NCBI GenBank assembly: GCA_048938025.1
Contig: JBHLMP010000009.1
Coordinates: 8,106-72,105 of the forward strand
Origin: Promethearchaeota archaeon
Lineage (GTDB): Archaea; Asgardarchaeota; Lokiarchaeia; Sigyniarchaeales; SOKP01
Direction: 5' to 3'
Length of the DNA stretch: 64,000 nucleotides
The notes under the pieces were generated by a model. It saw nothing but the letters and a program-made list of their open reading frames with translations, was not told the DNA's origin and ran no database searches. Positions 1 to 53,167 of this stretch are shown in pieces (position 1 is the first letter of the stretch; each line of letters begins with the position of its first letter). A program made the position numbers and the translations under genes.

Positions 1-271
1 AAATAAGATATAGTATGAAAAATGCTATAAGCCAAAGGAATTCCATTCCAAAAATATAAGCTAATCCCATAAATGGTTCAATAAAATATCGTTCTAATGG
101 AAAAGAAGAAGTATAATCTGAAGATACATCAGTTTGGCTAAGTGCATCATAAAAAATTACTTCTCTTTTGTTAATTACACATAATATTATCAAAAAGATA
201 ATCCAAATTGAAAAGAATGCTGAGACAATAGAAAGCAGCTTATTCTTTTTAATTGTAGTACTTAATGACAT
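1..271 (-). CDS. membrane protein, N-terminal part (gene runs off the window edge)
   Basis: Own minus-strand translation from ATG at about 269-271: MSLSTTIKKNKLLSIVSAFFSIWIIFLIILCVINKREV...GLAYIFGMEFLWLIAFFILYLI. The frame stays open to position 1 and shows two hydrophobic helices. It is absent from the ORF track because there is no stop inside the window. Confidence 0.4.
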   Translation of the reverse strand, partial: MSLSTTIKKNKLLSIVSAFFSIWIIFLIILCVINKREVIFYDALSQTDVSSDYTSSFPLERYFIEPFMGLAYIFGMEFLWLIAFFILYLI

Positions 272-561
272 AATATTAATTTGATCTAATTATTTATTAA
301 GATTCAACTTCCAAAATGAAAAAAAAAGAGAAATAGTTGAAATATTCTATTTAATCCTTTTCTTATTTAAGTAAAAGATTAATAGTAGCACAGAAAAGCT
401 AGTAAATAAGATAATTGTTAATAAATTATATCCTGGTATGCCATTATTATTGTTCGTATCTTGATTATTATTAGAGATTACAGGATTTTTTATTAATCAT
501 TTTTTAATCAGAGTTTTAATGATTTATATAAATTATGTATACAAATATGATAGAGCTAAGT

Positions 562-1740
562 TTATAAATATTTATCTAAAGATTTTGAAGAATTTGTAAA
601 TTTTCGATAAACTCTAACATCAACTACGGGGATTTCATCAATTATTAATTTACTTAATTCTTTCTCCTTAATATTACAAGATTTTGGTGGTTTTAATCCC
701 CTTAATCTAAGATAGAGAACAGGCATCATAGAATTAGAAGGTTGGATATTGGGATTTAGAGTTTTTAAAGATTGCTTAAGTTTTTGCGTGATATACTTAT
801 AAAAATCAAATTTATTTTTATAGCTTTTACAGATAATAGTTTCCCAGATATGGTTTCGATTATTTAACCGAATCATTTGGACTTTTTTAATATAATTCTT
901 TTTACCAATAATTTCGACAAGAAATACTCCCCGTTTAAATGTTGTGTCAATTGAGCAAACTGCTTCTGGAGACCCTGGATTATAAATCCAATTATCAAGT
1001 ATAAATTGTTTATGAAAATGACCTAATGCTAAATAGTCAATTCTATGTTTAAGGTGTTGAATATGGTCTATATTGATACCAGGAACATTTTTCATCTGTC
1101 CTTCAATCCCAAAATGTTGTAAAAGGATATGAAATAATCCATCATCATTTTGGATCCCTTTTCTTATTTTTGATAGATAGGAAATTGGTTTTTCACCGAG
1201 ATATCGAGTACCATATATCACCACATTCTTTATTTGAATTTTTCCTCCTTTTCTTGTTATGAAATTATAAGGTTCGAACATTTCCATTGGTGGAGCTTCA
1301 AGATTAGCATCTAAAAGTATTATCAATCCTAAGCTAGCAAGTAATTTAAGCCAAGATTGTCCTCGCTGTTTAAATCGTACTCCTCTAGAAAACTTACGAA
1401 TATCATGATTTCCTTCAATTGCTATAATTGAAATTGTCTTATTTGTATATTGGTAGAACTCTTTTAATAGATTAACAATCTTATTTAATTTTCCTGGAAG
1501 CATTTCCAGTGAAGTAAATACATCGCCACCTAGTAATAAAAAATCAACATGATAAGTAATTGCGAGTTGTAATATTTCTTGAAATATGTGAATAAAGTCG
1601 TCTGCTCGATAATCATTTCTGTATTGATGAGAGCCAAGGTGAATATCACTAGCGTGTATAAACCGTACTTTATCTTGATTATTTTGAATGTAGTTTTGAT
1701 AGCTTCCTAGTTTGTGTTTGAAAAGGTTACAGTCCAACAT
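562..1740 (-). CDS. Mre11/SbcD-like calcineurin-fold metallophosphoesterase (DNA repair exonuclease family)
   Basis: Ordered phosphoesterase motifs are present: HASDIHLG, LLGGDVF, IEGNHD, LLQHF, LGHFH. The 392 aa size fits archaeal Mre11. No rad50/herA/nurA is adjacent. Confidence 0.7.
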   Translation of the reverse strand: MLDCNLFKHKLGSYQNYIQNNQDKVRFIHASDIHLGSHQYRNDYRADDFIHIFQEILQLAITYHVDFLLLGGDVFTSLEMLPGKLNKIVNLLKEFYQYTNKTISIIAIEGNHDIRKFSRGVRFKQRGQSWLKLLASLGLIILLDANLEAPPMEMFEPYNFITRKGGKIQIKNVVIYGTRYLGEKPISYLSKIRKGIQNDDGLFHILLQHFGIEGQMKNVPGINIDHIQHLKHRIDYLALGHFHKQFILDNWIYNPGSPEAVCSIDTTFKRGVFLVEIIGKKNYIKKVQMIRLNNRNHIWETIICKSYKNKFDFYKYITQKLKQSLKTLNPNIQPSNSMMPVLYLRLRGLKPPKSCNIKEKELSKLIIDEIPVVDVRVYRKFTNSSKSLDKYL

Positions 1741-1922
1741 GTAAATTATAACATTCTGAAAGTTTTATACGATATTTTGAATATCATATTCAGATTTATA
1801 AATAATAAAAGCCTAAAGATGTAGTGAAAAACCCTAAAATATCTCGATATCACTGATTAGCAAAATTATTAATATTTTTTGAATTATTTGACTTACGATT
1901 ACATGAAAGTATTCCTATAATT

Positions 1923-2507
1923 ATGATTCAAGATAAAGAAATTAAATATGATGTTGGTGTAATTCATGGTCGATTCCAAATATTACACAATGATCATATG
2001 AAATATCTATTAGCTGGAAAAAATTTATGTAAACATTTAATAATAGGTATCACGAATCCAGATCCTTCTCTTACAAGAGATTCAAAAACAAATCCCCATC
2101 GTAGTACTCCTCTTGCAAATCCATTGTCCTATTATGAACGTTATGTGATGTTAAGAGAAGTATTTAAGGAAAAAGGATTTAAATTGTCCGAATTTTCAAT
2201 TGTACCTTTTCCAATTAATATAGCTGAATTAATTAAATATTATGTTCCTATGAATGCTGTATTTTTTTTATCAATCTATGATGATTGGGGCAGAGAGAAA
2301 AAGCAAAAATTAGAATCTTTAGGTCTAAATGTTTATGTATTATGGGAAGTTTCTTTTGAAGAAAAAGGATTAAGCTCAAGTGATATTAGGGATGCAATGA
2401 TTAATAATAAACCATGGGAACATTTAGTCCCTTCTGTAGTAGTCAAACTTATGAAAGAATGGGATATAATTGACAGATTGAAAAATATGAGCCTTTATAA
2501 TTTTTAA
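1923..2507 (+). CDS. cytidylyltransferase-like nucleotidyltransferase (NMN adenylyltransferase-like)
   Basis: The N-terminal GVIHGRFQILHNDH matches the (H/T)xGH nucleotidyltransferase signature, followed by a Rossmann-like IIGITNPD strand. Size is 194 aa. Confidence 0.55.
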   Translation: MIQDKEIKYDVGVIHGRFQILHNDHMKYLLAGKNLCKHLIIGITNPDPSLTRDSKTNPHRSTPLANPLSYYERYVMLREVFKEKGFKLSEFSIVPFPINIAELIKYYVPMNAVFFLSIYDDWGREKKQKLESLGLNVYVLWEVSFEEKGLSSSDIRDAMINNKPWEHLVPSVVVKLMKEWDIIDRLKNMSLYNF

Positions 2508-2582
2508 GTAAATCACTTACTAAAAATAAAAAAAAGATTATTTTGATTAATAATAATTTATAATATCTTTATTAACACCAAT

Positions 2583-3809
2583 TTAGCTTACTAAGACGGC
2601 CTCCATTATGATTTTGCCTATATTAAATTTATCTGTTAATAAGAACTTCTTAAATTTTGAAATTTTTCGTTTACTTATCATGAGTGAATGATATACTCCT
2701 GCGTTTTGCATAGTATTAATAAGTATATAGCCATTGATACTTGAGTCCTTAAGATACATTTTCTTATACACACCATCTTCAAAAAATTTCATTTCCTCTC
2801 CTTCGTATTTACCATCTGAGATGATTGGTGTTCCAAATATCTTAATCAGAGTTTGTATAGTAGAACCCTCATATCTAGTTTTTCTTCCGACCATATTATA
2901 ACCTGCAATTGTTCCTTGAGTCAGTGCATTAGACCAAAGTAAAATAGATTCTCGATTTCCAGTTAATAAGTTTGTTGATTCGACGATATCTCCAGCAGCG
3001 TAAATATCACGTACATTTGTTTCAAGAAATTCATTTACAATTATTCCTGAATTTATATTGATACCACAATCCTTTAAAAACTCTAAATTTGGTTTAACTC
3101 CCGTGGCAACTATAACAAGATCAGCATCTAAAACTGTTCCATCAGTGAGTTTTACGCTTTTGACTTGTTTTTTCCCTAAAATCTCAGTGACATTATTCTC
3201 TAATAAAACAGTAATATTATTTTTTTCAAGAATTTCTTTCGCTATATTTCCCATTTCTTTATCTAGCATACGAGGTAAAACTTTATCTAAGGCCTCAACA
3301 ATAGTAACATCTATTTCTTTTTTTTTCAAACCCTCAGCAGCATCAAGACCTATGAAACCTGCACCAAGTACAACTGCATTGTTAATTTTTTTTGTTTTGA
3401 TCCAGTTGTAAATATTATCAATTTCATTCAATGTTTTGAATGTAAACACACCTTCTTTATCAAGACCTTTTATGGAAGGTACATCAACATGGCCACCTGC
3501 AGCAATAAGAAGTTTATCATATTCAACCGATTTTGAGTCAAATAAGATTTTTTTGTTTTCAGGTTGAATGCTTTTTATTTCTTTGCCCAAAATTGGATTA
3601 ACATTCATTCGATTGAAAAAGTCTTTCCCTTTCCAAAAAACTGTATCTCTTTCTTCCTCTTCTAAGATATAATGACAGAGAAGGCAAGCAGAATATGGTG
3701 GAACATCTTCTTTCGAAATCATAATGATTTCCGCATCATGGTCATATTCTCTTATTGCTTCAACACCACTTACACCGGCTCCACCAGTACCAATTATTAC
3801 AAACTTCAT
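2583..3809 (-). CDS. FAD/NAD(P)-dependent pyridine nucleotide-disulfide oxidoreductase (CooS-associated type)
   Basis: Contains MKFVIIGTGGAGVSG (FAD GxGxxG), a redox CxxC in YSACLLCHY, a second dinucleotide fold VLGAGFIGLDAAE, and AAGDI. It lies 56 nt downstream of cooS on the same strand. Confidence 0.8.
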   Translation of the reverse strand: MKFVIIGTGGAGVSGVEAIREYDHDAEIIMISKEDVPPYSACLLCHYILEEEERDTVFWKGKDFFNRMNVNPILGKEIKSIQPENKKILFDSKSVEYDKLLIAAGGHVDVPSIKGLDKEGVFTFKTLNEIDNIYNWIKTKKINNAVVLGAGFIGLDAAEGLKKKEIDVTIVEALDKVLPRMLDKEMGNIAKEILEKNNITVLLENNVTEILGKKQVKSVKLTDGTVLDADLVIVATGVKPNLEFLKDCGININSGIIVNEFLETNVRDIYAAGDIVESTNLLTGNRESILLWSNALTQGTIAGYNMVGRKTRYEGSTIQTLIKIFGTPIISDGKYEGEEMKFFEDGVYKKMYLKDSSINGYILINTMQNAGVYHSLMISKRKISKFKKFLLTDKFNIGKIIMEAVLVS

Positions 3810-3865
3810 TTTCTTTCACACCTTTTTTCCATTAAATTTTATATAACAGCTTTTACTGGTGGATT

Positions 3866-5740
3866 TCATAATCCAAGAGCTTTTCGCTTCTCTTCAATAT
3901 GATTAATTATTAATTCTGCTTCTTTCTCAGGATCTGGCTCAACAACGAAATTAGCTCCTATTACACCTTTTAATCCTTGGGTTAGAAGTTCTGTAACTCC
4001 TTTACTTCCTAAAACCGGAGGAATAGTACCTAGAACAGTAAATATACCTGAAGAAACAACATATGCCCCAATACTAACAGCTTTTTCAGACATCCATTCT
4101 GGAGCGGCACCTGCAACAGGCAAATCACTAATATCTACATTTAATTCATTTGCGATAACAGCAGCAACGTTCAAAATTCTGCTTATATCAACACATGAAC
4201 CCATATGCAAAACAGGAGGAATACCAAGGCTTTTTGCAACTTCTTTTACACCTTCACCAGCTTGATCTGCTGCTTCTGGAACTAATAAACCTGCTTTAGC
4301 ATTTGCTATTGCTGCACAACCAGACTCAACAACTAGAATATCTTTTTCAATTAATCGTTTTGTCAAGGTAACATGATTAAAATCATGTTTAATTTTTGGA
4401 TTATTGCAACCAACTATAGCGGCTATTCCGCGAATTTTTCCAGCTTTTATTGCATCAATTAAAGGCTGTGCAGTACCACCAAGAGCTTCAAGAATTGCTT
4501 CAGCAGAAAATCCAGCTATTAATTTAACAACATTCTTAGGTATTTTTACAAGATTAGGGTTTCTGTTTTCATAGGCTTCAATAGCTTCTTTTACGATCTT
4601 AGTTCCAATATCATATGCATGCTCAGGATCGAATTCAATATGAGTGGCTCCGGGAATCTTAGCTTTTGGAGATGTAGTTATTATTTTTGAGTGATAACAA
4701 TTAGCAACTGTTGGTAATGAAGGCATAAGACACTGATAATCTACAACCATAGCATCTACAGCTCCAGAAACAAGTGCCAATTCCTGTACTAAGAAATTAC
4801 CAGCAACAGGAATTCCTTTTCTCATCAATAACTCATTTGATGTACAACAAATTCCTGCAATATTTATTCCATTGGCTCCTTTCTGTTTTGCTAATTCAAT
4901 CATTTCAGGATCTCTAACAGCATCGACAATTACTTCAGATAAAACAGGATTATGACCGTGTACAATAATATTAACATGATCTTCCTTTAACACTCCAAGG
5001 CTTACCGTACTCTCTTTTGGTTTTGGAGTCCCCCATAAAATGTCACTGAATTCTGTAGCAAGCATTGATCCACCCCAACCATCGCTAATTGAGGTTCTTA
5101 ACCCATGTAATAATAGACTTGCCATTTCTGCCCCAACCCCTATATGAGTTCGATGCATTATTTCTACAATCTCTCTATCAATACTTCGTGGCCAAATTCC
5201 AAGATTTTTCCATAACTCTTTTCTTTTCTCTGGTACCCGCTCTGCAAATTGAATAGTATTTTTAATCATCCCAAATTCTTCCATTGCTTTTTCTGCTAAT
5301 TCCTTAGCTATTTCCTCCTTAGATCTTTCGTCTATAACTATATTATATTCTTGGGCAATTCGTTTCAATTTTTCCTCATCAGTTATTTGATATCCTTGAG
5401 TTTTACCCTCAGCAGTTAAATGAAGAACTTCCACTATATCTCTACCATGATCAGAATGAGCTGCTGCTCCTCCAGCAATCATCCTCGCAAGGTTTCTAGC
5501 AACTATAGTGTCTGCATCAGCACCACATACTCCTTTCTTTGGCTCATTGCCAAAAGGATCAATTCTGCAAGGCCCCATCGCACAATTTCTACAGCAAATA
5601 CCAAGTAATCCATAACCACATTGTGGTTCTTGTAATTCTAATCTATCCCAAGCTGTAACAATATGCTCGTCAGCTGCTTTTTCTAACATATCTTGTGCAG
5701 CTACATCTATTGTTCTTTCTAAAATAGTTTCCCTTTTCAT
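3866..5740 (-). CDS. cooS: anaerobic Ni,Fe carbon monoxide dehydrogenase catalytic subunit, CooS type
   Basis: Contains QCGYGLLGICCRNCAMGPCRI and GVCGADADTIVARN (B/D-cluster cysteines) plus downstream HGHNP, AGICCT and GSCVD C-cluster ligand contexts. At 624 aa it is CooS length, not the ~800 aa of CdhA. Confidence 0.93.
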   Translation of the reverse strand: MKRETILERTIDVAAQDMLEKAADEHIVTAWDRLELQEPQCGYGLLGICCRNCAMGPCRIDPFGNEPKKGVCGADADTIVARNLARMIAGGAAAHSDHGRDIVEVLHLTAEGKTQGYQITDEEKLKRIAQEYNIVIDERSKEEIAKELAEKAMEEFGMIKNTIQFAERVPEKRKELWKNLGIWPRSIDREIVEIMHRTHIGVGAEMASLLLHGLRTSISDGWGGSMLATEFSDILWGTPKPKESTVSLGVLKEDHVNIIVHGHNPVLSEVIVDAVRDPEMIELAKQKGANGINIAGICCTSNELLMRKGIPVAGNFLVQELALVSGAVDAMVVDYQCLMPSLPTVANCYHSKIITTSPKAKIPGATHIEFDPEHAYDIGTKIVKEAIEAYENRNPNLVKIPKNVVKLIAGFSAEAILEALGGTAQPLIDAIKAGKIRGIAAIVGCNNPKIKHDFNHVTLTKRLIEKDILVVESGCAAIANAKAGLLVPEAADQAGEGVKEVAKSLGIPPVLHMGSCVDISRILNVAAVIANELNVDISDLPVAGAAPEWMSEKAVSIGAYVVSSGIFTVLGTIPPVLGSKGVTELLTQGLKGVIGANFVVEPDPEKEAELIINHIEEKRKALGL

Positions 5741-6345
5741 TTTTCCATACCTACCTGCATCATAGAGAAACCCAAATCACGCCATAACTTTATTAATCCA
5801 GGAATTTCAGGGCGAATTTCTGTTTCTACTGCCGCAACTTTTTGAGCAACTGTTCTACGATCTTCTTTTATAATTTCATTAATATCTCCATAATTAAGAG
5901 CCATTGTTTTGCACGCATCAACACATGCTGGATTCAACCCAACACTAATACGATCTTGACAATTATCACATTTAATGGCAACTTCCCTATCTAAAGAGAC
6001 CTTCCAAGACGGATGAAATGTAATCGCATCAAGAGGACAGGCAATAGCACACATACCACATGCAATACATTTTTCTTCGTTTATAAGAATGGTTTCTGTC
6101 TCTCTATCTCTATTTAATGCTCCTGAAGGACATACGTTAATACAAGGTGTCGGATAACATTGTCGACATTTGCCAGGATAAGTCATTATTCCAACAGAAG
6201 GCATTACATGGATTCTTGGAGTAGGTAATGGCTCTTCAAAAATTGCAGCAAAAAGATTTTTAGATTCTGAGTGTTCTATTGAACACGCAATCTCACAATG
6301 TTTACATCCTATACAATGTTCTGGCATAACATATACAGTCTTCAT
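5737..6345 (-). CDS. cooF: CooF-like polyferredoxin (4x[4Fe-4S])
   Basis: Cys motifs CIGCKHCEIAC, CRQCYPTPCINVCP, CIACGMCAIACP and CDNC...CVDAC. Its stop overlaps the cooS start (ATGA). An SD-like GAGGGAAG lies about 8 nt upstream of the ATG. Confidence 0.85.
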   Translation of the reverse strand: MKTVYVMPEHCIGCKHCEIACSIEHSESKNLFAAIFEEPLPTPRIHVMPSVGIMTYPGKCRQCYPTPCINVCPSGALNRDRETETILINEEKCIACGMCAIACPLDAITFHPSWKVSLDREVAIKCDNCQDRISVGLNPACVDACKTMALNYGDINEIIKEDRRTVAQKVAAVETEIRPEIPGLIKLWRDLGFSMMQVGMEK

Positions 6346-6661
6346 TTTTGGACTTCCCTCTTTCTAAATTTAGATTTGATTTTTTTTAGTTACAAAATTT
6401 TTTATTTAGATCAGTTTTAATTTTAAATATTAAAAAAAACGACAAAAATATCGTCAAATTATTATTGGAATTAGTTAAGTTATAAATCTTTTGAATATTT
6501 AATCATAATAATTGCCATTTTTGTAAAAAAAATCCATATGTAAACATTAATTAGATGTCTATTATTATTCGAAAAATATCATTAGATTTATTTTTGTAAT
6601 TTTATATATTATAAAAAGTTTAAAAAGTTAGGAATAAAAAGTAAAATAAAAAATTTTGAAA
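6346..6661 (-). promoter_or_regulatory. 316-nt AT-rich spacer separating cdhB-cdhC from cooF-cooS; probable terminator plus promoter region
   Basis: On the minus strand, oligo-T runs follow the cdhC stop. TATA-like TTTAAAT/TAAATAAAAAA elements and an SD (AGAGGGAAG, plus-strand cttccctct about 6353-6361) precede cooF. Confidence 0.35.
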
Positions 6662-8089
6662 TTACTTCTTCTTTCTTTTGGTTTCAATTTTTTTAATAAT
6701 TATAGATTCGGCGTGGATTTTACAATTCTTTAAGATGACTTTGAAACCTCCTGCTCCACCAACTCCAGGAATTGTCATTCCAACTGTACCCATTGGGACC
6801 ATCGCACCTGCTTCCTCCCATTCCTCTTCTTCTTCTTCCATAGCTTCTAATTCAGCCCAAGTTGCAACAATAGGATGATTTTTCTCTTTTAAGAATTCTT
6901 TTAATTCATTGAGATCTTTAATATCTTCTTCCGTTGCGATTTTGTCAATCAGGTCTTCAGGAATAAAATTTGCCACTCGTTCCTTCACTGAAGTAGGCAT
7001 CCATACGATTGTGTAAATGCCACTTTCAAAACCCAGTTGTAGTCCGTCATAATATTGGTATTTCGGCGAACCAATGTATTGAAAACTCACACCATTAAAA
7101 CCGGGCATCTGTTTACCCCCACCAGTCTGATTTGCCATAGCTGAGAAGGGTAGTCCATTGATCGCGACATCACCGTAATTCCTATCAACTATTCCATGAC
7201 CGTTTACTTCTGGTATATAAAAATCAATGGCTTCAAAACAGCCACATGACGTATGAGGAAATTCCATGCCTGAATATAAGTAAATTCTGTCAATTTCCCC
7301 TAGTGACCGTTTCTTAATCATTGCGTTAACTCCTGTAAATTCTCCAGCGTCCTTATTTAAACACTCGCCTGGAGGTACCTCGTACAGAGGACCCTTCGGA
7401 TCAACTTTAGCTGCTGCTCGGGCATCAAACCAATTGATTGAACCGCATAATGAAGTTCTATCTGGCGTTATACAACAAGCATGGGTGGGTGCAAAAGACT
7501 GGCATAATACGCACCCGTAGAACATATCCACATCTTCATCATGAATTGTTCTGGCTCTTTCATCTCTCTTTTCATATACTTGCATTGCCATTTCATACGG
7601 TTTTTCAATTGCTTTAGGATCTGTATAAAAAGTAACTTGCGCTTGTTTAATGATTGGCAATTCTGCTTTATAAAGTCTAATCAGGATTGTTCCTAACATA
7701 TCAAAATTATTTAACCCTTTTGCGAAAGCAGACTTTGAGATTCGCATCCAATTAGTGTATCTCTGATTTAAATGCATTATTCCGTTCACAAAGTTGCAAA
7801 ATTCATGGACTCTCCTTTCAAATACCGCTTCTAGGTCCTCTTCCAATTCAGGTCCAGCAACTTCTACTAAAATTCCAATAGGGTACCTTTCTCCTTCTTT
7901 CATATCTTTAAGATCAGGTCCGTGAAGTACAACTTGGCCATCCTTAATCTCTTTAGGTTGTTTTACCCGTACGAGTTCAAAATGCTTCTCAATTTTAGGT
8001 CCGCCGAGCTCTACATACATTTGATTACCTCTGATGCGCTCACCTTCATATACAGGACCTACATCAACGGGCATATCTGAAAAACTCAT
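6662..8089 (-). CDS. cdhC: acetyl-CoA synthase (A-cluster subunit), archaeal CdhC/beta type
   Basis: Contains CVLCQSFAPTHACCITPDRTSLCGSINWFDARAAAKVDPKGP and HTSCGCFE (A-cluster ligands). Has an acidic EEEEEEWEE tract and the GGFKVILKN C-terminal tail typical of archaeal CdhC. Confidence 0.93.
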   Translation of the reverse strand: MSFSDMPVDVGPVYEGERIRGNQMYVELGGPKIEKHFELVRVKQPKEIKDGQVVLHGPDLKDMKEGERYPIGILVEVAGPELEEDLEAVFERRVHEFCNFVNGIMHLNQRYTNWMRISKSAFAKGLNNFDMLGTILIRLYKAELPIIKQAQVTFYTDPKAIEKPYEMAMQVYEKRDERARTIHDEDVDMFYGCVLCQSFAPTHACCITPDRTSLCGSINWFDARAAAKVDPKGPLYEVPPGECLNKDAGEFTGVNAMIKKRSLGEIDRIYLYSGMEFPHTSCGCFEAIDFYIPEVNGHGIVDRNYGDVAINGLPFSAMANQTGGGKQMPGFNGVSFQYIGSPKYQYYDGLQLGFESGIYTIVWMPTSVKERVANFIPEDLIDKIATEEDIKDLNELKEFLKEKNHPIVATWAELEAMEEEEEEWEEAGAMVPMGTVGMTIPGVGGAGGFKVILKNCKIHAESIIIKKIETKRKKK

Positions 8090-8128
8090 TTAATAATTCT
8101 CCTCTAATTTTTTTGATATTTTTTATAA

Positions 8129-8659
8129 TTATAAATTTTCAATTAATTTTTCTAAAAAGGCTTTCCAATCAGCTTCACTTAAATTTGGTAAGCTAAATCT
8201 AGCGTTAGGATGTGAATATCGGTCTAAATCGACAGTTCTTACCCAATTTGAAAAGTTTTTTATTCGACTCATTGTTTGTGACACATAATATACGAGATGC
8301 CCTCCGAAAATAGCCATTTCATATTGTCCTTTTCCATCTAATCCTTTCCAGTCTTTATCTACTAGTCTACCAGTAATATTAATTAGAGACATATCCCATA
8401 ATTTATCTATAGGAATTTTATCCTTTAAATATCCATAGGTATGGCCAGTTGATATTACGTGACAATCCAGCTTTTTTGCAATATCTATGAAATAATCAGC
8501 AACTTTTTTACCATCTAACTCCCAGTTTAGAGATTCTGAGCCGATTACAAAAACCTTCTTTTTCTGTGCTTTTAGAATATTCGCCATTACTTTTGGATCA
8601 TAGACAGAAGTGCCCATCTCTGGACCAGGGATATTCGCTTTTTGATAAGGTCTTGCCAT
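8129..8659 (-). CDS. cdhB: CO dehydrogenase/acetyl-CoA synthase epsilon subunit
   Basis: At 176 aa it matches remembered CdhB landmarks (WKGLDGKGQY, KNFSNW, DLDRYSHPNARFS). It lies 39 nt upstream of cdhC on the same strand. Confidence 0.8.
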   Translation of the reverse strand: MARPYQKANIPGPEMGTSVYDPKVMANILKAQKKKVFVIGSESLNWELDGKKVADYFIDIAKKLDCHVISTGHTYGYLKDKIPIDKLWDMSLINITGRLVDKDWKGLDGKGQYEMAIFGGHLVYYVSQTMSRIKNFSNWVRTVDLDRYSHPNARFSLPNLSEADWKAFLEKLIENL

Positions 8660-8813
8660 TTTTTCATCAATTTACTCTGGTTTTAGTTTAAGTTATAACT
8701 TTTAAAACAATTGCTATACTTACATTTATTAAAGACAATTTAAAAAAATTGTTCTTATTAAATTAAACTAAAATGTAAGATGAATTAAATATAAAAGAAG
8801 TGAAAAATTTAAG
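8660..8813. promoter_or_regulatory. divergent intergenic region between cdhB and the CooT-like gene
   Basis: AT-rich with TATA-like boxes in both directions. An ACAATT core is repeated (about 8706 and 8734), and there is an imperfect palindrome ACAATTT-N4-AAATTGT at about 8734-8751. Confidence 0.3.
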
Positions 8814-9119
8814 TTGTGCGAATTTAAAATCATAAAACAAAACGATGGCTCCCAAATATTAGAGGACATTGTGGTTTTATCATATACAGAGAATAATGAA
8901 TTGCTATTCAAAGATATATTAGGTATTGGTGAGGTTATAGATTCTGGTTTAATATTAGATGTTAATACCTTAAACCAAACTTGTATAGTCCTTGAACATC
9001 CCTTGGTGAAAGATTTTATTAATCTAATTAAAAAATTCAATGATAATTCTTTAAACAAGGCTGATATTGAAAAATTCCAAAAAAACTTAGAAGAATTAAA
9101 AGAGACACTTAAAAAATAA
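8814..9119 (+). CDS. cooT: CooT-family nickel-binding protein (CODH maturation) with C-terminal helical extension
   Basis: A TTG start is followed directly by Cys2 (MCEFKIIKQNDGSQILEDIVVL...), the hallmark N-terminus of CooT. Its position is divergent from cdhB. The overlapping minus-strand ORF 8768..9127 is low-complexity. Confidence 0.55.
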   Translation: MCEFKIIKQNDGSQILEDIVVLSYTENNELLFKDILGIGEVIDSGLILDVNTLNQTCIVLEHPLVKDFINLIKKFNDNSLNKADIEKFQKNLEELKETLKK

Positions 9120-9143
9120 AAATTCAAAAAAAATCAAGAAATT

Positions 9144-10940
9144 TTAAATGACCTTCTTATTTTGACCTTTAATTCTTTTAACGTAAACAACAGATATTCC
9201 TATAAAGCCAATAAGAATGATATAAGTTATAAATATATCATATCCAGTAATCAGATTAGAATCCTCAGAAGAGTTTTCTTTTAGAGTTTGACTAGGCACA
9301 TAACCATTTTTACTTGTTGTAAGGATCATTCCATCTAATTGATCATTTTTGTAAGGTATTTCAGATTCTCCAGATTCAGATGTATTTCCTTTCCATAAAA
9401 GATTACCATCTTTCACAACAGTTACAGTAGCATTTTCCACTGGTGATTGATTTGCTGTTACTTGAAGGGTTACAGACTCATTTGTATAAGAAGATATCAT
9501 AATGTTAAGCTTTTCAGGTAAATCCAACCAAATAGGTACCTCAGGGTCTCCCAATAAGTTATACTGCTTCAAAGCTTTATCTTCCCATTCTGGAAAGTCA
9601 GCAGGTACCCCAGAATCAATTCTATCAACCATGTAATCTTCTTTAGCTAAGGCGAGAGCTTTACCGGGTTGATTATTTTGGAATAATTGTTCCCAAAAAC
9701 GAAAAGCGATCCCTTCAGAATACCATCCCCCATTTTCACGTTCCCACCATTGATCTTCTCCCCAAGTGACTTGACTCGATGCAATACATCCAATTGCAGT
9801 GTTTTTTAAAAAATATTCAGCTAGACAGTCCTCTTCATAATCAAATGTGCCTGTGTAACAACTTAATATGAAGAACAAGCCAAATTTGGATTCTTCAGAG
9901 TCTACTGGAAAATAATAAGTATCTGTTAAATATCTCCATACTGAATCATCAATAGCTTCACCATCTCCGAAATATGGGTCATCAGTATAGTCGAATAGTC
10001 CATCTTCATCATAATCTACAGTCCATTCTTCATAATGAAGCCCAGTTTTACTTCCATGAAAATTAAAAGTACCAATGCCACAACCGTTTTCAATAACACT
10101 TTTAAAATTCACATAGTTTGAGGATAAGTCATAAGGGTAATCAGAGGTTTTAATACCAGTAGTAAGGGCAAGAATTGTACTACTCCAACTTTCTGGAAGA
10201 TGGTTATTTAAGAAATTAAGAAAACGATTTCCATCGCATTCTCCAAAGTCTAAACTTTCACCCCCATTATTCCAATCTTGATTAAAAGCGAGAATTGCAG
10301 AGGCATACACAGCGTGAGTCATCCAATTGCCTACTAAGGGATTTTTTTCATAATATAATAATTTTTGAACAAGATTTAACATTTCATTCTTATCATTTGC
10401 GGGTAAACGACCTACATAAACTTCTGGCTCATAATCAAACGTATCGTTATGTCTATCTCCCCAATAACCATCATCATTTAAATCCCAATTATTATTTAAA
10501 TCAGTATAGAAAGAATCACAGCTTACAAAATCACCATCATAGGGATAATTATCATCAGATATTACAAGTAGAGAGGGAATATGGTTATTATCTCCGGCTA
10601 ATAGCACCCATTTAGTATTATTATTGTTATGATATGAGATTATGCAGTTTTTAATGCGTTCTTCCGAATTTCTACCCGAATAATTGGTATAAATACTCTG
10701 AACAGTTTCAATCTTAGTGACTAAACCCTTTTGAGTTTTCCATATTGCTAAAGGTTCCAAAGCATCTTTAAAATCATTAGTAGTAATGATTAGATAGTCA
10801 ACATTTGAATTTAAAACGGAATTATTTAAATAAGGAGAGAAAGAGATATCTATAGAAGATTTGGAATAACTTATAGATGTAGGAATTATACTGAAAAGAA
10901 TAATTATTAGGAAAATAGTCAATTTTTTTTCTTTAATCAT
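9144..10940 (-). CDS. secreted, C-terminally membrane-anchored peptidase C25 (gingipain-like, clan CD) family protein
   Basis: Signal peptide MIKEKKLTIFLIIILFSIIPTSISYS. Also LLAGDNNHIPS, VYVGRLPA, a His-Gly in FNFHGSKTG, a Cys in FFILSCYTG, and a C-terminal TM helix followed by a KR-rich tail. Confidence 0.6.
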   Translation of the reverse strand: MIKEKKLTIFLIIILFSIIPTSISYSKSSIDISFSPYLNNSVLNSNVDYLIITTNDFKDALEPLAIWKTQKGLVTKIETVQSIYTNYSGRNSEERIKNCIISYHNNNNTKWVLLAGDNNHIPSLLVISDDNYPYDGDFVSCDSFYTDLNNNWDLNDDGYWGDRHNDTFDYEPEVYVGRLPANDKNEMLNLVQKLLYYEKNPLVGNWMTHAVYASAILAFNQDWNNGGESLDFGECDGNRFLNFLNNHLPESWSSTILALTTGIKTSDYPYDLSSNYVNFKSVIENGCGIGTFNFHGSKTGLHYEEWTVDYDEDGLFDYTDDPYFGDGEAIDDSVWRYLTDTYYFPVDSEESKFGLFFILSCYTGTFDYEEDCLAEYFLKNTAIGCIASSQVTWGEDQWWERENGGWYSEGIAFRFWEQLFQNNQPGKALALAKEDYMVDRIDSGVPADFPEWEDKALKQYNLLGDPEVPIWLDLPEKLNIMISSYTNESVTLQVTANQSPVENATVTVVKDGNLLWKGNTSESGESEIPYKNDQLDGMILTTSKNGYVPSQTLKENSSEDSNLITGYDIFITYIILIGFIGISVVYVKRIKGQNKKVI

Positions 10941-11139
10941 ATTTTATTCATTATCGAATTCGTCCAGTTTAACATTATTGTGCAGATCTTAATATTTATA
11001 ATTTATGAATGTCATAACTTGTTTTAATAAAATAATGACAATTCCAAATAATACCCATTTTTATTACACTGATTAAATAGAATGGTTAATTAAAAGAATA
11101 TTAAGATGACTTAAATCAAAATGAGTATTTAGTGTATCT

Positions 11140-12000
11140 ATGAAAGTAGAATTTTATGCAGATATTAATAAATTCAATGAGCTAGTATTCCCATTCTTAT
11201 TAAAACATGAAGCAGAGAATAATCTTCTTTTCTCAATTCTTAATTCTCTAAAGGAAAACATAAATACATATGGAGATAAAAAATCAATTTTAACATTCAT
11301 TACTGAAAATGATAATATAAAATTAGTTTCTATAAGAACTCCACCCCATAACCAAATTATATCGTATACAGATGACTTGGAAACTATTGATGTTTTAATT
11401 GATATGCTTATTAAAAAAAACATTGATATCCCTGGTGTTTTAGGTTATAAAGAAGGAGTCAAAAAATTTGTTAAGTTATGGTGTGAAAAGAAAGGAGTTA
11501 AATCACATTTAACTACTAATGAAAGAATTTATAAATTAGAACATGTGGAAGAAAAAACTTTAGGTAAAAAGAAATTTGTTAAGGCTACAAAGTCAAATGA
11601 AAAAATTGTAATTCAATGGGCAAAAGAGTTTATGTCAGAAGCTTTCCCTGAAAGATCCCAAGAAATGATAGAACAATCGATGAAAAGGTTAAAGAAAGCG
11701 ATTTTGAAAGGCAAAATTTATCTATTATTAGATAATAATAAACCAGTTTCAATGGCACAGAAAGCAGGTAAAACACCTAATGGTAATTCTGTTAATTTCG
11801 TGTATACACCCGCAGCATTAAGGAGAAGAGGTTATGCAACTGAATGTGTGGCTAAATTAAGTAAAGAAATTTTGAAAGAAGGAAATAAGTTTTGTTTCTT
11901 ATTTACAGACTTAAAGAATCCAACTTCGAATAGCATTTATCAAAAAGTCGGTTATCGCTCTGTAATTGATGTAGATGAATTTCAATTTATCCCTAAATAA
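11140..12000 (+). CDS. GNAT-family acetyltransferase with N-terminal accessory domain
   Basis: The C-terminal half carries the acetyl-CoA motif A-like RRRGYATECVAKL and the FLFTDLKNPTSNSIYQKVGY beta-strand context. Confidence 0.6.
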   Translation: MKVEFYADINKFNELVFPFLLKHEAENNLLFSILNSLKENINTYGDKKSILTFITENDNIKLVSIRTPPHNQIISYTDDLETIDVLIDMLIKKNIDIPGVLGYKEGVKKFVKLWCEKKGVKSHLTTNERIYKLEHVEEKTLGKKKFVKATKSNEKIVIQWAKEFMSEAFPERSQEMIEQSMKRLKKAILKGKIYLLLDNNKPVSMAQKAGKTPNGNSVNFVYTPAALRRRGYATECVAKLSKEILKEGNKFCFLFTDLKNPTSNSIYQKVGYRSVIDVDEFQFIPK

Positions 12001-12083
12001 CCAATTCTTTTAAAATAATAAAATAAAAAAAAGATACGAGAAAGTCTCCTGATTTTCTCCTGAAAATTTTTAACTAATTATTT

Positions 12084-12368
12084 TTATTTCTTTTTTGGTG
12101 GTAAGATTTCAATCTCGATTGATGAGACGTTGTTAGAAGTCCCATCATCATTAGTAATTGTCTCAGTAGCAATTATAATTTCTCCATAAGTACTCCCTTT
12201 AATAAAGTTATTAATAAGAATTTCTGCTACGTCAACTGCTCGGGATATAGATCGACCTCGGGCTAATAATCTCACTGCTTTTTCATTTAGAACAACCATA
12301 GCAGCCATTACATAATTCATTGACTTCTTTTTACCAATAAAAACTTTTGAGTCATCATCTCTAGCCAT
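12084..12368 (-). CDS. albA: Alba DNA/RNA-binding chromatin protein
   Basis: 94 aa, containing VFIGKKKSMNYVMAAMVVL...LLARGRSISRAVDVAEIL, the classical Alba core. SD GGTGAG lies 6 nt upstream of the ATG. Confidence 0.9.
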   Translation of the reverse strand: MARDDDSKVFIGKKKSMNYVMAAMVVLNEKAVRLLARGRSISRAVDVAEILINNFIKGSTYGEIIIATETITNDDGTSNNVSSIEIEILPPKKK

Positions 12369-12640
12369 TAATTCTCACCTTTTCTATGCTTGGTTTATAC
12401 CTTTCTTTTTTATGCTTTCTAATCTTTTGTATTCCTTATATGTGTTTTAAATGCCAATTATCTATAGATAATTATATGTTATAAACCATATTCAGTTTTT
12501 AAGATTTTGTAATTTTATAATAACTTTGAAAAAATTAGGACAACATAATGACTCAATGAATTATAGAGTGAAATAATCTTAATATTTTAAATTAAACCTT
12601 AATTCATTAAAAAGAAAAAAAATGAATTTTGAATTTATTT

Positions 12641-14356
12641 TTACTCCTCGCGTAATAACTTTTTATCAATCTTTCCCACAACCGTAAGAGGGAGCTCTTT
12701 TGAAAATTCAATTACTTTAGGAACTTCATAAGGGGAACAATTCTCTTTAGCAAATTTTATTATATCTTCTTTTAATGCATCCACATTTCCATCAAATTCG
12801 TACTCAGGGCTTATTTGTATATAAGCTTTCACTATTTCGGAACCCGGCCTATCTGGATTTGGTAACCCGATTAGAGCAATCATACCTACAGCAGGATGCT
12901 TAGATAAAATATCTTCAACCTTTGTAGAAAATAATTTATAACCCCCCACTATTATCATATCTTTTGTACGATCTACAATTCTAAGGTACCCTCTTTCATC
13001 CATAATTGCGACATCTCCGGAATGCATATATCCATCTTGGTCAATAGCTTTTTTAGTTTCTTCAGGTTTATTATAATATCCTTTCATCACCATAGGACCT
13101 TTTGTACATATTTCTCCTGGCTCCCCTAAGGGAACTACTTCATTAGTATCAGGATCAACTAGTTTTAGTTCTGTATTCAATAATGGTAATCCAATTGAAC
13201 CCAATTTCCTCTCCTTTAAGAAAGGATTCATTGTAGTAAGAGGAGATGTCTCTGTCATTCCATAAACCTCTAGTAATTTACCCTCACCTACAATACTTTC
13301 TAATTGTTTCTGCGATTCTACTGGGAATGGAGACGCAGCTGACATGCAGACTTCCAGACTTGAATGGTCCAACCGCTTAAATTTTCGAGTATTAATCAAT
13401 ATTTGATAAAGCGAAGGTACATTTACAAGAGCAGTTGGTTTATATTTCTTAATCTCATTACAAATAGTTAAGGTATCTCTAGGATCTGGTATAAGCACTT
13501 GCCCCCATCCAAGATAAATACAATTTTCACAAAAAAAGGTACCTGCTATATGAAAAAATGGAAAACCTGATAATGCAATTTTAGCTCCTCTATCCCAACT
13601 AAGCCACTTTTGGACAATAAGTATATCAGAAACACAATTTCTGTGCGTTAACATTGCCCCTTTTGGAGGGCCAGTCGTTCCTCCCGTATATTGGATAAGT
13701 GCTATATCATCAGGTGTTACAATGACATTTGGCGGATCTGTAGGATATTGAGCTAAAACATCATCATGAAAATTAAGAACTGTTTTATTTTCCAATTGAG
13801 TAACTTCTCCTGAAGGAATTTCTCTGACAGCTCGAATTTTTTCTTGTTGTTCTTTTGGAAACATTCCAATAACACTAGTCCATATTACTAATTTCAATTG
13901 AGGCAATTTTGATTCAACATTCATTAATCTATGTTGGAAAATTGCATCTAAGGTCACCAAAGCAACTTTTTTGTCAACAGTACCTAAATCATTTAATTGG
14001 TAATGCATTTGGACATCTGACATAAGCGGACTTACTCCAGAAACTATACATCCTGCTTTAAGAGTTCCAAGAAATGCAATCACATATTCAGGTATATTTG
14101 GTAAATTAATTCCCACTACGTCTCCTCTCTTAAATCCTTGTTTAATTAGCATATTTGCGAATTGATTTGAGTACTTATCCAATTTTCCATATGTAATCTC
14201 TAAACCCTGATATGTCAAAGCCATTTTTTCAGGAAACGTTTCAATAGTATCTTTCACTGCTTCTGTAAATGAAATTTCAAATAAACTAGGATCTAAATCA
14301 GTTAATCCTTCATCCCAATTTTTGCGCCAGAATCGATCTTCATAAGGATTTGACAT
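12641..14356 (-). CDS. AMP-forming acyl-CoA synthetase (fatty-acid-CoA ligase family)
   Basis: Contains YTGGTTGPPKGAML (AMP-binding P-loop), YGMTET, GEICTKGPMVMKGY, SGDVA, DRTKDMI and a C-terminal GKIDKK. Confidence 0.88.
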   Translation of the reverse strand: MSNPYEDRFWRKNWDEGLTDLDPSLFEISFTEAVKDTIETFPEKMALTYQGLEITYGKLDKYSNQFANMLIKQGFKRGDVVGINLPNIPEYVIAFLGTLKAGCIVSGVSPLMSDVQMHYQLNDLGTVDKKVALVTLDAIFQHRLMNVESKLPQLKLVIWTSVIGMFPKEQQEKIRAVREIPSGEVTQLENKTVLNFHDDVLAQYPTDPPNVIVTPDDIALIQYTGGTTGPPKGAMLTHRNCVSDILIVQKWLSWDRGAKIALSGFPFFHIAGTFFCENCIYLGWGQVLIPDPRDTLTICNEIKKYKPTALVNVPSLYQILINTRKFKRLDHSSLEVCMSAASPFPVESQKQLESIVGEGKLLEVYGMTETSPLTTMNPFLKERKLGSIGLPLLNTELKLVDPDTNEVVPLGEPGEICTKGPMVMKGYYNKPEETKKAIDQDGYMHSGDVAIMDERGYLRIVDRTKDMIIVGGYKLFSTKVEDILSKHPAVGMIALIGLPNPDRPGSEIVKAYIQISPEYEFDGNVDALKEDIIKFAKENCSPYEVPKVIEFSKELPLTVVGKIDKKLLREE

Positions 14357-14492
14357 GTATAATATCCACCTTTAATTTTTAATAAAAAAATGAAGTTATT
14401 ATAATTAATATTGATTGAATTAGTTAAAAAGTTTTAATTAATTTGAGATCTTTGACCTTTTTGATCAATTTTTAGGGGTCAATATGTATTTT

Positions 14493-15269
14493 TTAATAAA
14501 ATTTTCTTCTAAAATCTTTAATATATTGATCTTTATCTTCATATTCATACCAAGCAGAACCATATTTTTCTAATTCATACGCATCTTTATATGATTTATC
14601 CATTAAATGGTTACTACATAATTTAATAGCATTTAGGACAGTTTGATTTTTTGGGAAGAGAAATTTAGCTTTATCCATAGCAGCTTCCATTAATTCTTCT
14701 TGGGAATCAACTATTTGATCAATTAATCCAATTTCTAATGCCTTTGTAGAACTGATCTTTTCAGCAAACATTAGAATTCTTTTTGTCCAAGTAATTCCTA
14801 TAACTCTTGTCATTAACACAATTGTACCGGTACCAGGAAAAATACCTAAATTTATTTCAGGCATCATGAAAATACTATCTTTAACAGCTATTCGATAATC
14901 AGAGCAGAGGGAATAGGCAACACCGTCACCCATCGCCTTACCATTAATAGCACAAATGGTTGGCTTTCCATAATATATTAATTTCACAATAGAAGCAGCA
15001 GTTTGTTCATATTCCTTAACAGCAGCATGATTACTTCCATCTACAGAATCTATATCCATCCCTGTTGTAAAACTTGAACCATTTCCAGTTAAGATAATTC
15101 CTCTTATTTTTTCATTATGTATACAAAACTCAATTGCTTTTTTAAGCTCCTTAAGCATTTTAATAGTTAAAGCATTTGCTCGTTCTACTCGATTTAAGGT
15201 AATTATACCAAATCTTTTTTTTATTGAAAATTCAATAAATTCTCCAAGTTCTAAACCTTCAAATGACAT
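14493..15269 (-). CDS. crotonase-fold protein (enoyl-CoA hydratase/isomerase family), paralogue 1
   Basis: Contains ITLNRVERANAL, LTGNGSSFTTGMD, AINGKAMGDGVAYSLCSDYRIA and MPEINLGIFPGTG. Confidence 0.85.
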   Translation of the reverse strand: MSFEGLELGEFIEFSIKKRFGIITLNRVERANALTIKMLKELKKAIEFCIHNEKIRGIILTGNGSSFTTGMDIDSVDGSNHAAVKEYEQTAASIVKLIYYGKPTICAINGKAMGDGVAYSLCSDYRIAVKDSIFMMPEINLGIFPGTGTIVLMTRVIGITWTKRILMFAEKISSTKALEIGLIDQIVDSQEELMEAAMDKAKFLFPKNQTVLNAIKLCSNHLMDKSYKDAYELEKYGSAWYEYEDKDQYIKDFRRKFY

Positions 15270-15313
15270 TTTTATTCCTTTTTATTCTTCTTTAGTTGAA
15301 AAATTTTTTAAAA

Positions 15314-16096
15314 TTATAGTAATGATAATTTTTCTCTAAAATCATTTATAAATTTACTTTTATTAGCATATTCAAACCAGCTTGAAGCTTCTTTTTCTAA
15401 TTCATAAGCATTATGATAATTTTTATCAAGTAAATGATTTGAACATAATTTAATAGCATTTAGAACAATCTGGTTTTTAGGAAAGAGAAATTTTGCTTGA
15501 TCTAAGGCAGTTTCCATTAAATCTTCTTGGGAATCAACTATTTGATCAACTAATCCAATTTCTAATGCTTTTTCAGAGCTAATCTTTTCAGCTAGCATTA
15601 ACATCTTTTTTGTCCAAGGAATCCCGATAATTCTTGTCATTAATATTATACAACCAGTGCCCGGAAAAATACCAGAAAAGATTTCAGGATATTGAAAATA
15701 ACTATCTTTGACACCTATTCTATAATCACAACATAAAAGAAATACAACACCTTCACCCAAACAACGACCATTTATAGCAGCAATCGCGGGTTTTCCATTA
15801 AATAATAACATACAAATCTCCGCAGCAGTTCTTTCAAGGTCTTTTACTGCAGTATTGTCACTACCATCAATAAAACCCAAGTCCATACCTGTACTAAAAG
15901 TTGTCCCATTCGCAGTTAGGATTAAACCTCGAATTTTTTCTGAATTTTGACAGTATTCAATTGCTTTTTTTAAAAATCTCAATTGTTCAACTGTAAAAGC
16001 GTTAGATCTATGAACCCTATTAAGTGTTATTATAGCAAATCTCTTTTTTACATCAAATTCGATGTATTCTCCAAATTCAAGATCTTTTAGAGACAT
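15314..16096 (-). CDS. crotonase-fold protein (enoyl-CoA hydratase/isomerase family), paralogue 2
   Basis: Same motif set as its neighbour (ITLNRVHRSNAF, AINGRCLGEGVVFLLCCDYRIG, YPEIFSGIFPGTG). About 60% identical by eye to paralogue 1. Confidence 0.85.
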   Translation of the reverse strand: MSLKDLEFGEYIEFDVKKRFAIITLNRVHRSNAFTVEQLRFLKKAIEYCQNSEKIRGLILTANGTTFSTGMDLGFIDGSDNTAVKDLERTAAEICMLLFNGKPAIAAINGRCLGEGVVFLLCCDYRIGVKDSYFQYPEIFSGIFPGTGCIILMTRIIGIPWTKKMLMLAEKISSEKALEIGLVDQIVDSQEDLMETALDQAKFLFPKNQIVLNAIKLCSNHLLDKNYHNAYELEKEASSWFEYANKSKFINDFREKLSLL

Positions 16097-53008: not shown

Positions 53009-53167
53009 TTTTTACACCTTTTTTAGTTTTAATTAATTTTAGTCATTATTAAATTAGACATCTATTTTATATAAAATTTTAAAATAAAATTAATAACATT
53101 GAAAAATTGTTAGAGATAAATAGTAATTATAATTAAATTTCTGAAATTATAAATTTAATTGATTAAA

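Follow-up and report, generated by a model that had tools for sequence, protein, structure and literature searches.

In a 64,000-nt stretch of DNA from a Promethearchaeota archaeon (contig JBHLMP010000009.1, positions 8,106 to 72,105; referred to below as the window), the locus at 2583-9119 encodes subunits of carbon monoxide dehydrogenase (CODH) as well as of acetyl-CoA synthase (ACS), and very probably it consists of two independent functional units lying side by side, namely a cooT-like gene divergent from cdhB-cdhC, and a cassette of cooF, cooS and a gene encoding an FAD/NAD(P) oxidoreductase (FNOR). The source genome, G000, is a metagenome-assembled genome (MAG) of 3.52 Mb in 88 contigs, with an estimated completeness of 96.7% and an estimated contamination of 5.1%. 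Comparisons were made with an order set of 154 genomes and a genus set of 54 genomes, both counting G000. Other G-numbers denote relatives, C-numbers contigs and L-numbers fetched loci.

The first unit would be a lineage-conserved fragment of the five-subunit archaeal acetyl-CoA decarbonylase/synthase (ACDS), the genes of which are scattered over four loci. CdhB would bind the distantly encoded 782-aa CdhA to form the CODH component (alpha2-epsilon2). As in methanogens, CdhC would alternate between the CdhA-CdhB CODH and the corrinoid protein made of CdhD and CdhE, and the synthase complex would feed a tetrahydromethanopterin-type Wood-Ljungdahl pathway, with nickel probably supplied by CooT. 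The second unit is predicted to be a self-contained monofunctional CO dehydrogenase cassette with its own promoter-like region and a palindromic operator candidate. In this cassette CooS would oxidise CO to CO2, CooF would carry the electrons and the flavoprotein would pass them to NAD(P)+, or the reverse; these roles, including the coupling of FNOR to NAD(P), are predicted by homology, and the direction is one that we infer. The cassette would have moved laterally among related Asgard lineages into different chromosomal places, and in G000 and two sister-genus species it would occupy a variable slot just downstream of cdhC.

The gene identities, coordinates and sizes given in a first-pass annotation of the locus were all confirmed by the open reading frames (ORFs) and profile matches. 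On the minus strand, the 176-aa product of 8129-8659 is CdhB, the epsilon subunit of archaeal CODH, as had been proposed: it passes the TIGR00315 cut-off (114.9 bits against 101.2), covers model positions 1-162 of 162 and matches PF02552 at 5.6e-24. It is followed by CdhC, the archaeal acetyl-CoA synthase (beta) subunit (6662-8089, 475 aa; TIGR00316, 618.3 bits against 355.95), and by a spacer of 316 nt (6346-6661) containing oligo-T tracts and the cassette upstream region. The cassette, also on the minus strand, begins with a CooF-like 4Fe-4S poly-ferredoxin (5737-6345, 202 aa; Fer4_11, 9.4e-18), for which HydN/DmsB-type matches stayed under the cut-off. CooS, the monofunctional Ni-CODH catalytic subunit, comes next (3866-5740, 624 aa; TIGR01702, 734.7 bits against a cut-off of 478), and FNOR is the last gene (2583-3809, 408 aa; Pyr_redox_2, 6.7e-61). 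The best NCBIfam matches of FNOR were PadH-like and the NirB N-terminal domain, both under their cut-offs, and it is 81-82% identical to the copies in the same position in G131 and G112. The cooF stop overlaps the cooS start by 4 nt, and the gap between cooS and FNOR is 56 nt. On the plus strand, 8814-9119 encodes a CooT-like small nickel chaperone of 101 aa with a TTG start (PF10133, 27.1 bits against a cut-off of 27, E = 5.2e-6). The end coordinate of the first-pass annotation, 9119, is the end of this ORF, which had been left unnamed there.

A profile search of the whole genome returned a single match above cut-off for each of the three remaining subunits: cdhA on C66 (1075.8 bits against 781.3, in an open frame of 783 aa), cdhD on C60 (336.4 bits) and cdhE on C14 (465.1 bits). 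As these are the only such matches in the genome, the earlier observation that the window is without cdhA, cdhD and cdhE holds. No second cdhB or cdhC scored above cut-off in G000, and no complete cdhABCDE operon is present elsewhere in the genome. Two possibilities had been raised at first, that CdhB and CdhC work with the CooS-type enzyme or that the complex is encoded in dispersed pieces, and since neither a second cdhB-cdhC pair nor a complete operon was found, the latter applies, with cdhA, cdhD and cdhE in one copy each on three contigs. Both cdhA and cdhD are interior to their contigs, and on C14 about 0.9 kb of sequence remains beyond cdhE. The neighbours of the three genes are unrelated (Ras/Arf/RagA GTPases, DAP epimerase, a histidine kinase and others), those around cdhA being Ras, Arf and Gtr1/RagA GTPases and a VWA-RING protein.

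The scattering of cdh genes over four loci (cdhA, cdhB-cdhC, cdhD and cdhE) is a lineage trait. All five relatives checked, which come from three families and include three members of the same genus, have cdhA, cdhD and cdhE on other contigs than cdhB or 240 kb to 1.5 Mb from it. In G033, a genome of one contig, the order of the genes is cdhE (0.82 Mb), cdhB (2.34 Mb), cdhA (3.24 Mb) and cdhD (3.35 Mb). The cdhABCDE genes are treated as a cluster in archaea, Asgard archaea included, in the available portions of PMC10469681 and PMC6317499. No statement of cdh dispersal in Asgard archaea was found in the literature consulted, which does not cover the relevant comparative work, and the trait is not claimed to be unpublished. 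Three genes of the methyl branch lie within the window itself, Ftr (52085-53008, minus strand), Mtd (53159-54013, plus strand) and Mch (60870-61865, plus strand), each solitary among unrelated neighbours that include a RagA-like GTPase, which fits a tetrahydromethanopterin-type Wood-Ljungdahl pathway with scattered genes. An MtrH-like methyltransferase gene (G000:C66:62543-63430) was also observed 3.5 kb from the solitary cdhA, amid GTPase and VWA-RING genes.

The conserved local unit is cooT divergent from cdhB-cdhC. A search of 41 genomes (G000 and 40 relatives) found cdhB in 27, and 20 of the 26 other cdhB loci were then fetched, four of them interrupted by a contig end no more than about 2 kb from where cdhC or cdhB ends. 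In these 20 loci, cdhB adjoins cdhC in 19, the exception being G023 with a truncated cdhB, and none of the 20 contained a match to CooS, CooF or FNOR (E <= 1e-8). The order is cdhC then cdhB in one family, f4 (3/3 loci, L070, L071 and L072), and cdhB then cdhC everywhere else, indicating that the pair is kept in two arrangements, with cdhA meanwhile far off. Upstream of cdhB and divergent from it, a CooT-like gene was found in 11 of 12 same-genus loci with cdhBC as well as in both loci of the sister genus, and it is retained in genomes without the cassette. The G000 protein matches PF10133 positions 1-59 of 60 and carries an additional C-terminal extension of about 40 residues. The Cys2 codon (TGC or TGT) is kept in 7/7 aligned genus sequences, this residue being the nickel ligand of CooT according to the available part of a review (PMC6006190). 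The start codon of cooT is TTG in G000 and ATG in relatives.

The region between cooT and cdhB is under stronger conservation than the genes, since about 115 nt before the cdhB start (region 8680-8800) are nearly invariant across the genus, exceeding the conservation of the coding sequences. This cdhB/cooT intergenic promoter region contains the palindrome ACAATTT-N4-AAATTGT (8735-8752), a candidate operator. Besides the window, 10 of 12 cdhBC loci of the same genus have this palindrome, and it was absent from both sister-genus loci and from 7/7 loci of other families. In L059 (G005) and L060 (G017), an insertion of about 1.6 kb separates cooT from the cdhB promoter, and a conserved GGSS signature in it presumably marks an amidase-like gene. 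The cdhC of G018 (L109, G018:C4) has one in-frame TAG (ORFs of 239 and 230 aa) yet is 84-86% identical along its whole length; the gene may be a pseudogene, or the TAG may be due to a sequencing error or to recoding.

The distribution of the cassette is different from that of cdhB-cdhC. CooS of the window type was found in 9 of the 154 genomes of the order, five in the genus (including G000) and four in the sister genus, and the gene order cooF, cooS, FNOR on the same strand is kept in all nine. The cassette lies beside cdhBC in three of them (G000, G131 and G112) and elsewhere in six (G018, G062, G015, G059, G137 and G128). In G018, G062 and G015 it has other surroundings, on contigs other than those of cdhBC, and in G015 the cdhC-to-NMNAT interval is complete without it. 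In G128, the cassette is on a contig other than that of cdhC, and at least 7 kb on each side of the cassette gave no cdh match. In G059, the two parts of cdhC are at the ends of two contigs, of which one runs 6.9 kb downstream without CooS, and the cassette is on a third contig. In G137, which is 93% complete, cdhC was not found at E <= 1e-50. Among the 80 closest species-representative CooS loci, a CooF-like neighbour was present in 67 and both CooF-like and FNOR-like neighbours in 44, and cdhB was present in none. These 44 loci bear out the earlier view that the triad is of a known cluster type, one described in the available portion of PMC6344411.

Signals in the spacer are consistent with two separate transcription units. 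Oligo-T tracts, the usual archaeal termination signal, occur just after the cdhC stop (about 6633-6661), and T-rich tracts were found there in 8/8 genus sequences aligned. The cassette upstream region (about 6346-6615) contains a TATA-like element, TTTATAAC (6479-6486), a palindrome, ACGAT-N6-GTCGT (6439-6454), that is unique in the window, and a ribosome-binding site, GAGGGAAGTCC. Conservation extends over 150-270 nt upstream of cooF in G000, G131, G112 and G137, including TTTATAAC and the palindrome, the sister-genus form of which is CAACGAC-N6-GTCGTTG. This upstream region is kept in G137 though its cassette is not beside cdhBC, and the remaining five cassette copies share a different TATA-rich upstream motif. 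About 45 nt past the FNOR stop are also shared, with a T-tract next to them. The presence of different palindromes at the cdhB and cassette promoters argues for different regulators. An inverted repeat of 26 nt, imperfect (73% complementary) but exact over its first 10 nt, has its arms at 2557-2582 and 6590-6615, near both cassette edges, where terminal repeats of a mobile unit would sit; it is probably due to chance in A+T-rich DNA.

The sequence comparison suggests that the cassette was recently exchanged between related Asgard lineages. The CooS of the window is 92-94% identical to those of G131, G112 and G137 but 82-84% identical to the copies of its own genus. This pattern is not shared by other genes of the window: the prolyl-tRNA synthetase-like protein is 76-78% identical to those of G131/G112/G137 and 72% to that of G128, against 78-81% within its own genus; Mch is 77-79% identical to those of G131/G112/G137 and 73% to that of G128, against 68-73%; and CdhC is 88-89% identical to those of G112 and G131 and 83% to that of G128, against 80-87%, none having been found in G137. 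Nucleotide identity to G112 is 0.62-0.84 in the flanks, and with a step up at either edge of the cassette it becomes 0.89-0.94 for cooF-cooS and 0.83-0.86 for FNOR. At four-fold degenerate sites, identity between G000 and G112 is 0.77 for CooF, 0.76 for CooS and 0.62 for FNOR, against 0.38 for CdhB, 0.47 for CdhC, 0.35 for NMNAT and 0.45 for Mre11. Codon bias alone does not explain this difference, because the same cassette genes compared with G062 give 0.52-0.55, and the lower synonymous divergence of the cassette relative to the flanking genes points to recent lateral exchange. The palindrome at the cdhB promoter of the window is of the own-genus type and absent from both sister-genus loci, so that the flank appears to be native and the cassette to have been imported or exported.

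In G131 and G112, the layout is cooT, cdhB, cdhC, a spacer of 319 or 683 nt, cooF, cooS, FNOR, an extra ORF, NMNAT and Mre11. A genus-wide search had given the adjacency as unique to G000, a result overturned by the order-wide search that recovered these two genomes. In nine same-genus loci with a complete cdhC-to-NMNAT interval (2.9-8.4 kb), the interval contains three conserved hypothetical genes, and some intervals also contain genes encoding a Ras GTPase, an M28 peptidase or a ferredoxin-domain protein. G000 has no orthologues of the three interval genes; two have relatives elsewhere with only 35-36% identity and the third has none. Since the interval holds other genes in the genus, absent as orthologues from G000, the cassette fills a variable slot downstream of cdhC. 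The sharing of this slot may reflect a single insertion with later exchange between copies, integration at a preferred site, or selection beside the synthase genes.

Several observations weigh against two merely neighbouring units. The adjacency is no one-off, the same layout being present in two sister-genus species, and the slot is the same in three species despite the apparent recent exchange, so selection for the neighbourhood could be involved. In 2 of the 80 bacterial loci, an ACS homologue (CdhC/AcsB) lies about 1.2-1.3 kb downstream of cooS-cooF-FNOR. The separate transcription of cdhBC and the cassette is a reading of sequence signals, and the CooT assignment is marginal, scoring at the family threshold. 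Copy numbers and absences are provisional, because all the genomes are MAGs with 3-9% estimated contamination. The two bacterial loci that parallel the neighbourhood of the window are L171, from an Elusimicrobia MAG, and L182, from a Clostridia MAG.

Of the alternatives, an advantage of the neighbourhood without any hybrid complex is the least improbable, though still unlikely. Here the co-location downstream of cdhBC would help in the sub-lineage of G000, G112 and G131, where partial read-through or shared induction by CO might occur and CooS might scavenge CO leaked by the synthase or supply reducing power during operation of the synthase. The occupation of one slot in three species of two genera speaks for it, as do the two bacterial loci with an ACS homologue after cooS-cooF-FNOR, and the CooT-like chaperone, encoded 2.5 kb away, could serve both nickel enzymes. 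However, six of the nine cassette genomes hold the cassette elsewhere, the two promoters have different palindromes, the spacer between cdhC and cooF varies from 316 to 683 nt across the three adjacent layouts with oligo-T tracts after cdhC, and cooT is kept in genomes without the cassette.

There is a slight chance that in one Asgard sub-lineage the cassette was captured repeatedly, or kept selectively, just downstream of cdhB-cdhC because a pyridine-nucleotide-linked CooS cooperates with the ACS subunit, perhaps passing CO to it or taking CO from it. If so, these archaea would have, beside the ferredoxin-dependent CdhA, a second way into the carbonyl branch that is coupled to NAD(P)H.

A true hybrid enzyme, in which CdhB and/or CdhC bind the CooS dimer to form an unusual CODH/ACS with a bacterial-type catalytic subunit, is very improbable. 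The genes are physically adjacent in three species, and the Prismane domain (prismane/CODH core) is common to CooS and CdhA, but a full-length, single-copy CdhA is present and is conserved in relatives, and cdhB-cdhC is kept in most genomes without this CooS (cdhB in 27/41 genomes, CooS in 9/154). CdhC aligns only to positions 301-705 of 710 of NF007078, the bacterial-type fused alpha/beta model, that is, to its A2-A3 part, and is therefore without the A1 docking domain. According to the available part of a preprint (bioRxiv 10.64898/2026.07.07.736967), bacterial ACS is kept on CODH by A1, which also extends the CO tunnel, and archaeal CdhC contacts a CdhA-specific C-terminal domain and Rossmann domain 2; the 624-aa CooS has no such CdhC-contacting C-terminal domain. 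The location of six of nine cassettes away from cdhBC, the cassette's own upstream region, the lack of A1 in CdhC and the absence of cdhB from all 80 related CooS loci thus argue against the pairing of CdhB/CdhC with CooS that the first-pass annotation had considered.

A chimeric join of the cdhBC locus with an unrelated cooFS locus from a different organism is hardly credible, since, for all the 5.1% contamination of this MAG and the raised G+C over cooS (0.368, against about 0.27-0.30 in neighbouring stretches and about 30% over the window), both cassette flanks are syntenic with relatives (Mre11-NMNAT and cdhC-cdhB-cooT-PepC25-GNAT), so that two misjoins would be needed, the same layout is present in two other assemblies, and G+C is similarly raised over cdhC (0.348). 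Public contigs also bridge both cassette junctions with 0 differences (run X1, record 5 at 6199-6797 and record 1 at 1500-3354), and these do not count as independent support because X1 may be the sample behind the MAG assembly.

The database proteins closest to the window CooS are from Promethearchaeota MAGs (72-94% identity), one of them, at 78%, from a marine sediment metagenome, and next come metagenome proteins and an ANME-1-type archaeon at about 70% and Firmicutes, Desulfobacteraceae and Anaerolineae at 65-68%. A metagenome scan for further Asgard copies of the cassette gave a best identity of 70%, with none near the Asgard clade among the matches listed (at least 80 loci). A quick maximum-likelihood tree was built from 105 rows, comprising the window CooS and four orthologues from its genus, with the 23 of 25 paralogue loci and the 77 of 80 species-representative loci that were left once rows with coverage below 90% or with stops had been dropped; the sister-genus copies were not included. 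In this tree, the Asgard sequences form one clade (support 100), nested among Thermodesulfobacteriota, Chloroflexota, Bacillota, methanogens and an Archaeoglobaceae MAG. The unit had been called bacterial-style, which is only roughly right: bacteria are indeed in the CooS clade, but methanogens, Archaeoglobaceae and others are mixed in with them, and the tree gives no direction of transfer.

The best PDB matches of CooS were 6t7j (816 bits), 6vwy/6b6v (769/760 bits), 1jqk (579 bits) and the CODH-II chains (about 564 bits), and the C. autoethanogenum CODH chain gave 678 bits. We take 6t7j to be the CODH of Thermococcus sp. AM4 and 6vwy/6b6v that of Desulfovibrio vulgaris. These two CODHs are placed in clade E in the available portions of PMC13056359 and PMC6344411, and the match scores, which stand here in place of a labelled reference tree, suggest that the CooS of the window is clade E-like. 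Among 17 aligned sequences, the invariant columns of CooS included C41, C49-C50, C53, C58, C72, H95, H263, C299, C337, C445, C475, C516 and K553. CooS contains the type II D-cluster motif (Cys-X7-Cys-Cys), full B- and C-cluster ligand sets and the His/Lys acid-base residues, the columns being assigned to clusters on what we take to be the C. hydrogenoformans CODH-II numbering. The motif classes and the structural groups E-1/F-1 are those given in the available text of PMC6344411, which also counts one Lokiarchaeota genome among Ni-CODH holders. A second CooS paralogue (about 35% identity; L080-L104 in relatives) was found in about 30 of the 54 genus genomes, its best solved relative being 7b7q. 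In G000 no more of it is seen than the last 100 residues, at the edge of a contig (C8:1-303).

Both units belong to known kinds, and the locus shows no new enzyme architecture. As in the Methanosarcina ACDS (cdhABCDE), all five subunit families are present above curated cut-offs in one copy each in G000, and as in methanogen ACDS, CdhC is without A1 and the tetrahydromethanopterin methyl branch (Ftr, Mtd and Mch) is present. Unlike in Methanosarcina, the genes of G000 occupy four loci and form no operon, cdhB is with cdhC and not with its structural partner cdhA, and a CooT-like gene is divergent from cdhB. In comparison with CooT of Rhodospirillum rubrum, the G000 protein is likewise a small PF10133 protein with the nickel-binding Cys2 conserved, as far as the ligand is described in the available part of PMC6006190, but it has 101 aa with the C-terminal extension and a threshold score, and its gene goes with cdhB-cdhC and not with a cooS-cooC-cooJ operon.

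CooS-CooF-FNOR clusters are described in Geobacter sulfurreducens and Clostridium ljungdahlii/autoethanogenum in the available parts of PMC6344411 and PMC4703632. The cassette of G000 has the same three families on one strand with tight spacing and complete CooS active-site motifs, but its host is an Asgard archaeon, its distribution is patchy (9/154) and it was apparently recently exchanged. No regulator gene of the RcoM/CooA type was seen beside the G000 cassette, and PMC6344411 says that biochemical work on this FNOR type had yet to be reported. The bacterial CODH/ACS (AcsA-AcsB; Moorella thermoacetica and Clostridium autoethanogenum) is similar in that a CooS-type CODH gene neighbours an ACS gene. 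In G000, however, the ACS is the short CdhC of archaea and has no A1, the domain by which AcsB is docked on AcsA, and an epsilon subunit and a separate CdhA are present. The two genes are also set apart by a spacer of 316 nt in which terminator-like and promoter-like signals occur.

Pipelines that seek a cdh operon, or that judge a CODH by its gene neighbours, can misread this order, and the CooS here would be called 'ACS-associated'. In these archaea, a CooS predicted to oxidise CO, together with its CooF and FNOR, is an accessory trait that is rare and mobile, and the widespread second paralogue resembles 7b7q, so that CO oxidation is not to be assumed as a capacity of the group. The company that cdhB keeps with cdhC and a CooT-like gene, and not with cdhA, is a small clue to the assembly or regulation of the complex. 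Of modest secondary interest are the mobility of the cassette, the unit that cooT forms with cdhBC and the scattering of cdh genes throughout the lineage.

The window also holds Alba, Mre11 and a RagA-like gene, which in combination with the GTPase and VWA-RING genes around cdhA identify the source as an Asgard archaeon; Promethearchaeota is a phylum in the kingdom Promethearchaeati. No tRNA was found in a scan of window positions 1-16000, and an Rfam scan of 1-12500 gave no match. A sigma-70 promoter scan returned 31 sites against 30.9 expected and so carries no information, the model being bacterial and the host an archaeon. The depth of public contigs is raised at 8709-8975, which is better explained by conserved cooT/promoter sequence common to related strains.

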